Positions 53,450-62,889 of a stretch of 64,000 nucleotides of DNA are shown here, one piece after another; within the stretch, counting starts at the first letter, position 1; every line of letters starts with the position of its first letter. The position numbers were made by a program, and so were the translations under genes. Source of the DNA: Escherichia coli O127:H6 str. E2348/69 (GTDB lineage: Bacteria; Pseudomonadota; Gammaproteobacteria; Enterobacterales; Enterobacteriaceae); NCBI RefSeq assembly GCF_000026545.1, contig NC_011601.1. The stretch is one strand, 5' to 3'. A model generated the notes under the pieces. The model had not been told where the DNA came from. It saw only the letters and a list, made by a program, of their open reading frames with translations, and made no database searches.

Positions 53450-53476
53450 TTATCGGCAAGGAGGGGGGAAACTTTA
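53450..53476 (-). promoter_or_regulatory. Sigma-28 (FliA) class 3 promoter of the tar operon
   Basis: Minus strand reads TAAAGTTT-N11-GCCGATAA, a perfect match to the sigma-28 consensus, about 30 bp upstream of the tar ATG. Confidence 0.85.
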
Positions 53477-56978: not shown

Positions 56979-56982
<4 letters not shown>

Positions 56983-57866
56983 GCTTCCTCGGTTGTCGTC
57001 TGTTGTTGCGGATTTTTCACCGCACGCACATGCTCTTCCAGCTCAATAAACGACGGACGTTCGCTGGAATAGAGCGTTTTGCGACCAAACTCAACGGCGA
57101 TAGGCGGTGCGTAACCGTTCAGATTTGAAAGCAGAGTGACTTTGACGCACTGCATCATTTTGCTGGTTTCGGCGCTTTTCTGACGTAAAACACTCGCTAA
57201 TGGGGAAATAAATCCGTAAGCCAATAAAATACCGAGGAAAGTCCCCACCATCGCATGAGCGATAAGCGCCCCCAGCTCGGCGGCAGGACGATCGGCTGAA
57301 CCTAACGCGTGAACGACCCCCATTACAGCCGCAACAATACCAAACGCCGGAAGTGAGTCCCCGACCAGCGCCAGACTGTTCGCCGGGACTTCTGCCTCGC
57401 TTTCGTGCGTCTCAATCTCTTCATCCATCAGAGCTTCGATTTCGAAGGTGTTCATGTGACCACTGATAATCAGGCGCAGATAATCGACGATAAATTCAAG
57501 CATGACGCTATCCGCAAGGATGCGTGGGTAGCTGGCGAAGATCTCGCTCTCACGGGGATTTTCAATATCGCGTTCCAGCGAAAACATCCCCATCTGCCGC
57601 GATTTCGCCATCAACCGATAAAGCAGAGCCAGCAGATCCATATACATTGCTTTGGTGTATTTGGAGCGACGAAACAGCAACGGCAGCGCCTTCAGCGTGC
57701 CTTTAATCGCTTTGCCATTATTGCCGACGATAAACGACCCAATCCCTGCACCGGCAATAATCACCAGTTCAGCGGGTTGATAGAGTGCTCCAAGGCTTCC
57801 ACCGGTCATCAAATAACCGCCGAAAACTGTACCGAGAACAACCAGGTAACCTAATAAGATAAGCAC
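56979..57866 (-). CDS. motA: Flagellar motor stator protein MotA
   Basis: 295-aa ORF overlapping the motB start by 4 bp. Confidence 0.97.
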
Positions 57867-57937
57867 GACATCATCCTTCCACTGTTGACCATGACAGGAT
57901 GTTCAGTCATCAGGCGTTAACACGCGATAGGGGCAAA

Positions 57938-58038
57938 AAAAAGCAGCGGTACGTCGTTACCGCTGCTGGAATGTTTCGCCACACCGTATCAGTTAAACAG
58001 CCTGTACTCTCTGTTCATCCAGCAGTTGTGGGATAATA
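57938..58038 (-). ncRNA. Candidate MotR-type sRNA / motA 5' leader, ending at an intrinsic terminator; ends are approximate
   Basis: Sigma-28 promoter at 58046..58072 inside the flhC 3' end, followed about 100 nt downstream by hairpin CAGCAGCGGTAACGACGTACCGCTGC plus T8 (57938..57972) before the motA ATG. Confidence 0.4.
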
Positions 58039-58571
58039 TCGGCAGGATTCTGGGAAAGTTTACGTCTTTTTACTGCCCGGGATGGCGGCTGACATAAGCT
58101 GCAGGCAAAGCTGCCAACAGGCTGGTGAGCGTGGGTAATAAAATTGCCGCCGCAGCAGTTGCAGCTGGAAAGTTGCAGTAATCCACTTTCAACAAACCGC
58201 ACCAATGTCCAGGCACGGGTTAATGCCAGCAGCGGTCCTTCTTCTGCTTGCGGGCACTGTTCAAGGTATAAACGGTAGGCTTTGATCACCGCATCGACGC
58301 CATTACACAAGCCAGTTTTCAGTAAAAACTGCCATGCATTACAGAACATCGAAGCATGAACATTTTGTTCCCAGGTCATAAACCAGTCGGTTGAAAATGG
58401 CAGCATGCCTTTCGGCGGTGGGCTTCCGCGCAGTTCTTTATAGAGTTTTATCAGACGTCCGCGACTTAACTGTGTTTCGCTTTCCAGCATCTGCAAACGA
58501 GCGCCCAGGGTGATCAATTCCATTGCCAGCTGAATATCCCGCGCTTCCTGAACAATGCTTTTTTCACTCAT
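57993..58571 (-). CDS. flhC: Flagellar master regulator subunit FlhC
   Basis: 192-aa ORF with a Cys4 zinc-binding C-terminus (CNCCGGNF...CSLCQPP). Confidence 0.97.
58046..58072 (-). promoter_or_regulatory. Sigma-28 promoter of the motAB-cheAW operon, located within the flhC coding sequence
   Basis: Minus strand reads TAAACTTT-N11-GCCGATAT, a close match to TAAAGTTT-N11-GCCGATAA. Confidence 0.7.
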
Positions 58572-58573
58572 GA

Positions 58574-58924
58574 TCAGGCCCTTTTCTTGCGCAGCGCTTC
58601 TTCAGGCTGATTAACATCATTCAGCAAGCGTGTTGAGAGCATGATGCCGGTATGAATTTGCTGGAGATCGTCAACGCGGGAATCTTGCGTCAACTGAGTA
58701 ATCGTCTGGTGGCTGTCAAAACGGAAGTGACAAACCAGTTGATTGGTTTCTGCCAGCTTAACCATTTGCGGAAGAGTCAGTGCCGCTAACGTTGTCGCCA
58801 TTTCTTCATTTATGCCGAGACGAAACATAGCGGACGCTTTGTCCTGAACAATCAGACGCTGTGCAAGTAGTAAATATGACAAGTTGATGTCATAAATGTG
58901 TTTCAGCAACTCGGAGGTATGCAT
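58574..58924 (-). CDS. flhD: Flagellar master regulator subunit FlhD
   Basis: ORF 58574..58933; start taken at [15 protein letters not shown] (116 aa); the 119-aa start at 58933 is the alternative. Confidence 0.93.
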
Positions 58925-59703
58925 TATTCCCACCCAGAATAACCAACTTTATTTTTATGCGGTCACACCGCACCCCGTGATGTCGCCGGGAAGCCCCGGT
59001 AAAAAATAATTAGCATTAGAATAGTTGCGATAAGCTGCAATAAGCAGACCCACCTTTTTGGTTTAATAAGTCCTTACAAATAGAAGGGGGTCTTTACACT
59101 TATCTAAGATTTTTCCTAAATCGACGCAACTGTACTCGTCACTACACGCACATACAACGGAGGGGGGCTGCGATTTTCAATAATGTGTGATGCAGATCAC
59201 ACAAAACGCTCAATTACTTAACATAAATGTATAAGTCATACTTTTGTTTTGGGTGTATTTCAATCTGTTAAAAAATTTTTCACTACACTGGCAAGCAAAA
59301 ATGAAACAGGAATAATCGAAATGGGATGTTGCGCACAGTTAAAATAACTCACCGTAAATAATCATCTGCTATAAATAATCGCTTTAATGCAATACCAGAT
59401 AAGCCATTTTTAAACAAACACTTACCGCACAACAAACTAATTAACTACAAAGAAAGGCAACAATCAATCTAATGTTAATAAAATATTTTACATATATTAA
59501 CCACTTGTTCAATATGGGAAATCAGTACATTATTTTCTTATAAATACAGTTGAAATCATATGATAACCAAGAGTGATTGATTAATTGTCTTTACTAATAA
59601 CCAGACTAATATTTACCTGTTTAACTGAGTTGGGATTGCGTCGTTTCTCCATTAGGAGTAAAGCTTTAATGTCACCTGAAGTTCACAGAATAAGGAACAG
59701 GTT
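58925..59703. promoter_or_regulatory. flhDC promoter and long 5' leader, and the divergent uspC promoter; AT-rich; no insertion sequence present
   Basis: About 780 bp of AT-rich non-coding DNA between the divergent flhD and uspC starts with no transposase ORF or terminal repeats; individual regulator sites were not mapped. Confidence 0.6.
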
Positions 59704-60132
59704 ATGAGCTATAGCAATATTCTTGTCGCCGTTGCGGTTACACCGGAAAGTCAGCAACTGCTGGCAAAAGCGGTATCTATCGCCAGGCCAGTAAAGGGAC
59801 ACATCAGTTTAATTACTCTCGCTTCCGACCCGGAAATGTACAATCAATTAGCTGCGCCGATGCTTGAAGATTTACGCAATGTGATGCAGGAAGAAACGCA
59901 AAGCTTTCTTGATAAGTTAATTCAGGATGCGGGGTATCCCGTTGACAAGACGTTTATTGCCTACGGTGAGTTAAGCGAACATATTCTGGAAGTTTGTCGC
60001 AAACATCATTTAGATTTGGTGATTTGCGGTAATCACAATCACAGTTTCTTTTCGCGAGCATCCTGCTCGGCGAAAAGAGTGATTACCTCAAGTGAGGTCG
60101 ATGTGCTGTTAGTTCCACTTACGGGAGATTAA
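59704..60132 (+). CDS. uspC: Universal stress protein C
   Basis: 142-aa ORF MSYSNILVAVAVTPESQQLL... Confidence 0.93.
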   Translation: MSYSNILVAVAVTPESQQLLAKAVSIARPVKGHISLITLASDPEMYNQLAAPMLEDLRNVMQEETQSFLDKLIQDAGYPVDKTFIAYGELSEHILEVCRKHHLDLVICGNHNHSFFSRASCSAKRVITSSEVDVLLVPLTGD

Positions 60133-60138
60133 CCGCAC

Positions 60139-62889
<2,751 letters not shown>

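Follow-up and report, generated by a model that had tools for sequence, protein, structure and literature searches.

The flhDC-motAB-cheAW cluster lies on the minus strand in E. coli E2348/69 (EPEC O127:H6), with cheA downstream of motA. Its flhC-motA junction raises the question of whether a sigma-28 promoter buried in the flhC coding sequence and an intrinsic terminator in the motA leader give rise to a small RNA of the MotR type, with read-through supplying the motA mRNA, and whether such an RNA would do here what MotR does in K-12. We examined the junction in a window of 64,000 nt (the whole stretch of DNA analysed, from contig NC_011601.1), the relevant region of which is 100% identical to E. 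coli E2348/69. The genes that frame the junction and the leader between them are as follows.

57993..58571, minus strand: flhC coding sequence, which shares its final 37 nt (stop codon included) with MotR, as nt 1-37 of the RNA
56979..57866, minus strand: motA, which begins with GTG and heads the motAB-cheAW operon, whose expression comes from read-through
57867..57934, minus strand: rest of the motA leader, present in read-through transcripts only; contains the motA Shine-Dalgarno sequence GGAAGGA

A sigma-28 promoter inside flhC

The window has a single copy of the motif TAAACTTT-N11-GCCGATAT, which lies inside flhC at 58036..58062 (minus strand). A first-pass annotation of this DNA had correctly noticed a sigma-28 motif on the minus strand in the 3' end of flhC but put it at 58046..58072; the actual position is 10 nt lower. 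The complete promoter string, TAAACTTTCCCAGAATCCTGCCGATAT, was found in 0/100 dinucleotide shuffles and carries two mismatches to the sigma-28 consensus, TAAAGTTT-N11-GCCGATAA. When the whole window was searched with this consensus at ≤3 mismatches, four matches were obtained against 0.53 expected. The fourth of these, at 20871..20897 on the plus strand, has three mismatches, including GGGGATAA in place of GCCGATAA, and we took it as a chance match.

58055..58062, minus strand: sigma-28 (FliA) -35 element TAAACTTT, an exact motif match over flhC codons 170-173
58036..58043, minus strand: sigma-28 -10 element GCCGATAT, over flhC codons 177-179 (Ala-Asp-Ile)

The same 27-mer is the FliA ChIP-seq site of K-12, with a FAT score of 101, and in the same dataset the expression of motA drops from 302 in the wild type to 1 in the fliA mutant, whereas that of flhC drops from 320 to 107 (Fitzgerald et al. 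2014 Table 2, PMC4183435). The FliA dependence that had been stated for motAB-cheAW is thus borne out by published data. We scanned for FlhC and obtained 80 loci from Enterobacteriaceae, Erwiniaceae, Pectobacteriaceae and Yersiniaceae. In 79 of them motA lies 89-218 nt downstream of flhC, and the remaining locus stops just past flhC. All 80 loci carry a sigma-28 motif with ≤3 mismatches in the same register, and the -10 element ends exactly 43 nt ahead of the final stop-codon base of flhC in 79/80, the exception being a truncated FlhC match (L069). The -35 element is unchanged in 76 of the 80 species and reads TAAACTTA in the other four, while GCCGATA of the -10 element is invariant in 80/80 loci, with its spacing to the flhC stop fixed. 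A previous report describes the motA promoter in flhC as the most conserved FliA promoter and as bound in Salmonella (Fitzgerald et al., bioRxiv 10.1101/188474).

The position of the motif in a coding sequence allows another reading, in which it is a chance match held in place only by the amino acids of FlhC, and the hairpin downstream is a plain flhDC terminator. We looked at the codons themselves in 72 ungapped flhC genes with 144 codons that are both amino-acid-conserved and degenerate. Fifteen of the 144 are synonymously invariant, and 13 of these 15 are found among codons 167-172, 177-178 and 182-187, codons that underlie both promoter elements, the flank upstream of the -35 element, and MotR nt 2-19. 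Codon entropy averages 0.05 bits across this region versus 1.32 bits elsewhere (Fisher p ~1e-15). Codons 167-169 joined the tested region post hoc, after inspection of the data; in the sets fixed beforehand (codons 170-172, 177-178 and 182-187), 11/11 are invariant. Across 72 species the synonymous sites beneath the motif do not vary, in contrast to those in the remainder of flhC, which is not what amino acid constraint would leave. FliA also binds the site, motA expression is lost in the fliA mutant (PMC4183435), and the promoter constrains Ala177-Asp178, FlhC D178A being fully functional (bioRxiv 10.1101/188474). Because Asp178 is dispensable for FlhC function, we attribute the conservation of the -10 element to the promoter. 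The chance-match reading was already refuted by the published data, and we give it a negligible probability.

This promoter is the intragenic FliA 'duon' promoter of Fitzgerald et al., and our codon analysis reproduces the codon constraint described for it. It also goes beyond their 2014 and 2017/2018 reports in that the synonymous invariance extends over MotR nt 2-19 (codons 182-187) and over codons 167-168, upstream of the -35 element; we found no description of the invariance of either set in the Fitzgerald papers. Invariance of MotR nt 2-19 at synonymous sites across ~70 species hints at an undescribed role of the 5' end at the RNA or DNA level, to which we return below.

A conserved intrinsic terminator in the motA leader

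Downstream of flhC, the leader contains a single strong terminator-like site before motA.

57942..57967, minus strand: terminator hairpin AGCAGCGGTA-ACGACG-TACCGCTGCT, with a 10-bp stem (6 G-C) and a 6-nt loop
57935..57942, minus strand: T8 run, the U-tail of the terminator

The hairpin with its T8 run had been anticipated at 57938..57972; both elements are present, but with the boundaries listed here. Its placement just past the flhC stop holds, the stem starting 26 nt beyond the stop codon, whose final base is 57993, and so does the estimate of about 100 nt from promoter to terminator, given that 101 nt separate the -10 element's end from that of the T-run. The spacing of about 70 nt to motA is also right (68 nt from the end of the T-run to the start), but the start codon is GTG at 57866 instead of the ATG that had been assumed.

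The GCAGCG...CGCUGC stem and the U-run are retained in Enterobacteriaceae and Erwiniaceae. In a 66-sequence orthologue alignment, the stem is paired in 98.1% of the cells, and compensatory changes occur at three apical pairs (23 cells), a covariation that was reached by 0/500 shuffles. A T-run of 6-9 is present in 66/66 orthologues that have the hairpin. Outside these families the picture changes: Serratia, Pectobacterium and Brenneria keep the promoter, and their leader structures differ and have no strong U-tract. Within the Erwiniaceae, the promoter and the terminator are kept while the seed region (nt ~40-58) has diverged. From these lineage differences, we conclude that the promoter is older than the terminated small RNA, and that the terminated RNA is older than the present seed.

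The window carries the motR locus

With the promoter and the terminator defined, the RNA expected from this locus can be compared with the annotated MotR of K-12.

57935..58029, minus strand: MotR small RNA, 95 nt long, running from its +1 (A, 58029) to a 3' end within the T-run at 57935

K-12 motR (b4828, 'small RNA MotR'; 1977208..1977302) maps to 57935..58029 with 93 of 95 positions identical and no indels, and its RefSeq annotation in K-12 overlaps the final 37 nt of flhC. The RNA lies between the 3' end of flhC and motA, on the strand common to both genes. The published cloning primer starts ACAACTGCTGG (5'-ACAACTGCTGGATG...; Melamed et al. 2023, PMC10578931), and the MotR* mutant of the same study, in which 'TGC at positions 6-8' is changed to GAG, is numbered in agreement with this +1; on account of both, we fixed the +1 at 58029, which is 7 nt past the -10 element. 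The 3' end of MotR is K-12 1,977,208 (Bar et al. 2021), corresponding to 57935 in the window, so that the 10-bp hairpin and the T8 run close a product of 95 nt. The predicted fold of this RNA has an energy of -28.7 kcal/mol and a z-score of -2.43, and its centroid is dominated by the terminator hairpin, which upholds the strong hairpin read from the letters. A 3' stem-loop with a U8 tail is typical of Hfq-dependent small RNAs, and the T8 run is expected to form an Hfq-binding 3' end.

In K-12, MotR was detected as a ~95-nt band that becomes much weaker when fliA is deleted, and Hfq co-immunoprecipitation recovers the RNA (Melamed et al. 2023, PMC10578931). The same study derives it from the motA 5' UTR, places its promoter in the flhC coding sequence and describes that promoter as common to motAB-cheAW. 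The proposal of a FliA-dependent small RNA from a promoter internal to flhC therefore coincides with a published and annotated RNA. MotR was also seen on Hfq in RIL-seq of EPEC and Salmonella (Melamed et al. 2023, PMC10578931), and the EPEC RIL-seq study annotates it in E2348/69 as E2348CN_0026, 'motA 5''. Other resources were silent on it: a scan of 57000..59800 with the Rfam 15 covariance models at E ≤ 1 matched 0 families, there being no MotR model; the PGAP annotations of E2348/69 and of other PGAP genomes do not include the MotR RNA; and no entry for motA, motR or 1977208 was found in the main text and examined supplement text of the Term-seq study of Adams et al. 2021. The locus itself is present in 5376/5426 complete E. 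coli genomes. Since the promoter is identical to that of K-12, we infer that MotR is transcribed in a FliA-dependent manner in E2348/69.

Termination and read-through into motAB-cheAW

We are highly confident that the window holds the E2348/69 copy of the known motR locus, with read-through of its terminator into motAB-cheAW. For K-12, this reading is founded on the literature (FliA binding, FliA dependence, RNA size, Hfq binding and a seed-mutant phenotype), to which the present analysis adds the sequence identity with K-12 and the conservation of the promoter and the terminator; by extension, the locus should behave in E2348/69 as it does in K-12. In the proposed scheme, polymerase carrying sigma-28 (FliA) would start at the class-3 promoter in the final ~60 nt of the flhC coding sequence, with +1 at 58029. 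Most transcripts would go no further than the intrinsic terminator, 26 nt beyond the end of flhC, giving the 95-nt Hfq-binding MotR, and a fraction would pass it to form the motAB-cheAW mRNA. That a short terminated RNA is accompanied by read-through into motA has been published for K-12, where the longer MotR bands were ascribed to read-through of the MotR terminator, and the insert of the published pZE-MotR clone runs as far as the start codon of motA (primer SM002; Melamed et al. 2023, PMC10578931).

The hairpin, lying directly 3' of flhC, would also end the flhDC (class-1) transcripts, making motA dependent on FliA. Judging from RNA-seq ratios, it most likely does so: efficient termination of class-1 transcripts would fit the expression in the fliA mutant, in which flhC remains at 107 but motA is at 1 (PMC4183435). 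The further suggestion that the motA leader is 'attenuator-like' is speculative, both in the literature and here. Melamed et al. (2023, PMC10578931) speculate that MotR raises S10, that this leads to NusB-dependent anti-termination, and that read-through is regulated in this way.

One way to bring such factors to the leader would be a BoxA-like element at MotR nt 29-40, GCUGUUUAACUG, over the flhC stop, recruiting NusB/S10 to promote read-through of the terminator. This stretch does look like BoxA, and MotR is reported to alter motAB-cheAW mRNA levels in a nusB-dependent way (Melamed et al. 2023, PMC10578931). However, MotR departs from the published consensus, GYTCTTTAANA, by a G at position 4 and a U at position 11; the first of these positions is also one of the two altered in the inactive suhB boxA mutant C4T/T6C. 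Position 3 is T or C among the orthologues (GCT or GCC), and a match with two mismatches within 95 nt is near chance. We therefore rejected the site at MotR nt 29-39, GCUGUUUAACU, for failing the consensus at positions 4 and 11 with a variable position 3, and consider recruitment of NusB/S10 through it very unlikely.

The invariant 5' end may pair with the terminator

The 5' end of MotR that is invariant at synonymous sites is complementary to a segment that overlaps the terminator stem.

58018..58025, minus strand: 5' strand of a hypothetical anti-terminator, CUGCUGGA, MotR nt 5-12, complementary to nt 60-67
57963..57970, minus strand: 3' strand of the hypothetical anti-terminator, UCCAGCAG, MotR nt 60-67, overlapping the 5' arm of the terminator stem

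A predicted pairing of the invariant MotR 5' end with the 5' arm of the terminator is a new observation, and it might act as a weak anti-terminator. As a cis-acting attenuator, it would let untranslated transcripts from the sigma-28 promoter, in which nt 5-12 are free to pair with nt 60-67, read through in part into motA. Transcripts from flhDC, with the same segment under translation, could not form the helix and would terminate efficiently. This would supplement the model of MotR action.

Several predictions favor such an attenuator. By prefix folding, the helix between nt 5-12 and nt 60-67 has a probability of >0.99 in the nascent RNA at 67-84 nt, and at full length the terminator fold is ahead by only ~3 kcal/mol (-28.7 vs -25.5). 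The sequestration of the 5' arm is worth -10.9 kcal/mol compared with -5.3 +/- 2.4 in 1000 shuffles, a value reached by 2.1% of them. The helix is predicted in 64/65 orthologues, and both of its strands, which at the 5' end are distinct from the seed, are invariant in 66 aligned sequences, including the flhC synonymous sites, with one substitution (E. albertii). MotR* (nt 6-8 UGC to GAG) abolishes the predicted helix, and the published MotR* RNA is 'more abundant' (PMC10578931). The expression data point in the same direction, with flhC at 107 and motA at 1 in the fliA mutant while sigma-28 transcripts give 302 for motA (PMC4183435).

On the other hand, the statistics are modest. As controls, we used the natural hairpin-plus-T-run sites in the window, three by strict and 41 by relaxed criteria, and the MotR site ranks 5th of the 41, too weak for significance. 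The refolding barrier from the anti-terminator helix to the terminator is ~6 kcal/mol, so that strand displacement should be fast. The two strands, being invariant, offer no covariation. Pectobacterium and Brenneria conserve CTGCTGG too, in leaders without the CCAGCAG partner, and the pairing leaves the invariance of nt 13-19 unexplained. The abundance of MotR* could equally come from RNA stability, and a very strong promoter followed by a leaky terminator explains the expression without any alternative structure. Weighing both sides, we regard the cis-acting attenuator as quite unlikely. A stronger version, in which the promoter of origin decides, by means of the nt 5-12 anti-terminator, whether the one hairpin lets class-3 RNAs pass or stops class-1 RNAs, is distinctly doubtful. 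Conceivably, the two kinds of RNA would be told apart by whether flhC is being translated over nt 1-37, as it is in flhDC transcripts. If this were true, flhDC-initiated RNAs, with flhC codons 183-185 being translated, would terminate almost completely, and sigma-28 RNAs would be read through in part.

A seed polymorphism weakens the predicted pairing with rpsJ

MotR in K-12 is a trans-acting RNA with a central seed (nt ~43-54); rpsJ and fliC are among its targets, and it raises the number of flagella. The only two substitutions between the window and K-12 lie in this segment, U49 (A in K-12; 57981) and A54 (C in K-12; 57976).

57976..57987, minus strand: MotR seed, nt 43-54; ACGGUGUGGCGA in the window, ACGGUGAGGCGC in K-12

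The loss-of-function seed mutation M1 changes nt 46-48 from GTG to CAC (primer SM467; Melamed et al. 2023, PMC10578931). G46, U47 and G48 are retained in the window, and the flanking nt 49 and nt 54 differ from K-12. With RNAduplex, nt 43-54 of K-12 MotR and nt 141-152 of the rpsJ coding sequence form 12 contiguous pairs at -22.4 kcal/mol, at a place that fits the rpsJ binding mapped at '~+150 nt in its CDS' (Melamed et al. 2023, PMC10578931). The window allele loses two pairs of this predicted duplex. The predicted energies at the rpsJ site are as follows.

K-12 allele (A49/C54): -22.4 kcal/mol
O157-type allele (U49/C54): -18.7 kcal/mol
Window allele (U49/A54): -15.1 kcal/mol
M1 mutant: -11.2 kcal/mol
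Mean best match on random 312-nt chunks: -17.3 kcal/mol

The 46-nt rpsJ target site is identical in 5412 of 5424 genomes, a collection outside which NC_011601.1 stands, so that the site in E2348/69 is taken from this near-universal identity. Because E. albertii, Salmonella and Citrobacter all have U49/A54, the seed allele of the window is the ancestral one, and each of the substitutions derived in K-12 adds one base pair to the rpsJ duplex. Among complete E. coli genomes, exact matches to the 35-nt seed alleles number ~2970 for the K-12 type, 587 for the O157 type and 1135 for the window type, and 574 further genomes have the O157 type at one mismatch. This suggests that strong pairing between MotR and rpsJ may be lineage-specific. 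The seed polymorphism and its predicted effect on rpsJ pairing are a new observation.

These predictions raise the question of whether the 95-nt RNA of E2348/69, with its ancestral seed, is mainly a by-product of a leaky insulator terminator between flhDC and motA, without a trans function on rpsJ. The 12-pair duplex predicted for K-12 falls where rpsJ binding was mapped, whereas the window allele pairs less strongly than the random mean and comes closer to the M1 mutant; with the rpsJ site identical in nearly all genomes, nothing compensates for the loss. The Erwiniaceae, which conserve the promoter and the terminator but not the seed, also fit a terminated RNA of this kind. Yet the duplex energies are predictions, and MotR has fliC and flgJ as further targets. 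GGUGUGG is conserved in Enterobacteriaceae, which suggests that the ancestral seed is functional on some target, and the detection of Hfq-associated MotR in both EPEC and Salmonella, as reported by Melamed et al. (2023, PMC10578931), is not what a mere by-product would lead one to expect. In the examined supplement text of the EPEC RIL-seq study there is no MotR-rpsJ chimera; since the flagellar genes are almost silent in that study (motA baseMean ~3), its supplements are uninformative on MotR targets. We consider the by-product reading unlikely. The more modest conclusion is that the trans function characterised in K-12 may not be fully transferable to E2348/69.

Comparison with known systems

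The closest relative of this locus is K-12 MotR (b4828; Melamed et al. 2023, eLife 12:RP87151), with which it shares the position, the sigma-28 27-mer, the +1, the 95-nt length and an identical terminator hairpin with its U8 tail, at 93/95 overall. It differs by U49/A54 in place of A49/C54, both within the predicted 12-bp rpsJ duplex. Like ChiZ and IspZ, small RNAs that arise from 5' UTRs by premature termination (Adams et al. 2021, eLife 10:e62438), MotR starts at the same site as the mRNA downstream and is produced by a leader terminator; unlike them, its promoter and its first 37 nt lie in the upstream coding sequence, and its terminator is intrinsic and not Rho-dependent. The motA leader also resembles classical attenuators and riboswitch platforms in having an intrinsic terminator, partial read-through and a predicted competing helix on the 5' arm, but the alternative helix is weakly supported here, and in the motA leader we identified no leader peptide, ligand pocket or protein site that could serve as a sensor.

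In summary, the MotR locus in the window is an already known one, real and well conserved, and its re-identification leaves existing knowledge unchanged, although it indicates that a reading of the sequence on its own can recognise a small RNA whose promoter is buried in a gene. One point that the comparison adds concerns the seed. About 40% of complete E. coli genomes, including E2348/69 and O157:H7, carry MotR forms that are less complementary to rpsJ, and the K-12 allele is derived, so that the S10-based mechanism may be lineage-specific.

Synonymous invariance around the MotR 5' end and promoter

Two stretches of flhC were found to carry zero variation at every synonymous site across 72 species.
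58011..58028, minus strand: MotR nt 2-19, corresponding to flhC codons 182-187
58070..58075, minus strand: flhC codons 167-168, upstream of the -35 element
Both lie outside the promoter hexamers and outside the published MotR seed. The invariance of nt 5-12 could reflect a hypothetical anti-terminator helix, in which these residues pair with nt 60-67, a segment overlapping the 5' arm of the terminator; such pairing does not cover nt 13-19 or codons 167-168.

Leaders in other genera

We compared the flhC-motA intergenic regions of three Serratia loci (L071, L077, L081) and of Pectobacterium and Brenneria loci (L073-L076, L078, L079), all drawn from the 80-locus FlhC comparison. The intragenic sigma-28 promoter is retained in all three genera, and different conserved leader structures are present in place of the MotR-type terminator. 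The Serratia leader has a GC-rich hairpin immediately 3' of the flhC stop codon and the Pectobacterium leader has a long hairpin, AUCUAUCACUG...GUGAUAGAU, with no strong U-tract following either of these hairpins.

Other elements within MotR

Two further features of MotR were considered.
57990..58001, minus strand: BoxA-like sequence GCUGUUUAACUG, MotR nt 29-40, spanning the flhC stop codon
58009..58018, minus strand: MotR nt 12-21, with an out-of-frame AUG at nt 12-14
The BoxA-like sequence is notable because MotR has been tied to NusB/S10 in the literature. We rejected its identity as a BoxA, as it mismatches GYTCTTTAANA at position 4, which is mutated in the inactive suhB boxA. The AUG begins a nine-codon ORF, MNREYRLFN*, which ends shortly past the flhC stop, has no obvious Shine-Dalgarno sequence and shows no conservation among orthologues in the codons past the AUG; this ORF is probably meaningless.

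Other sigma-28 sites and the flhD upstream region

A motif scan of the window and inspection of the region upstream of flhD gave the following.
53450..53476, minus strand: perfect sigma-28 consensus, TAAAGTTTCCCCCCTCCTTGCCGATAA
61268..61294, plus strand: sigma-28-like site TGAAATTGCACCAGATCGAGCCGATAA, antisense within otsA (60139..61572, minus strand)
58934..59703: flhD-uspC intergenic region
Table 2 of Fitzgerald 2014 gives a FAT score of 57 to the FliA site of the tar-tap-cheRBYZ promoter, whose sequence is the same as TAAAGTTTCCCCCCTCCTTGCCGATAA. The sequence of TGAAATTGCACCAGATCGAGCCGATAA also appears there, as a weak FliA ChIP-seq site within a gene (FAT score 2) that does not affect otsA expression in K-12. 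Whereas K-12 MG1655 carries IS1H upstream of flhD, E2348/69 has no IS element in this intergenic region. The antisense RNA AsflhD, annotated in K-12 across the flhD 5' end, would correspond to roughly 58903..59122 on the plus strand, assuming no indels relative to K-12.

MotR seed alleles and predicted rpsJ pairing

57976..57987, minus strand: MotR seed, nt 43-54
Two SNPs separate the window's seed from the K-12 form, one at 57981 (nt 49) and the other at 57976 (nt 54). The window's U49/A54 allele is ancestral and the characterised K-12 allele, A49/C54, is derived. A49 and C54 each add one base pair to the predicted 12-bp MotR-rpsJ duplex, whose predicted energies are -15.1 (window), -18.7 (O157-type) and -22.4 kcal/mol (K-12), and the rpsJ target site is invariant. 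Since the ancestral seed in the window is predicted to pair more weakly and the derived K-12 seed more strongly, control of S10 by MotR may be lineage-specific.
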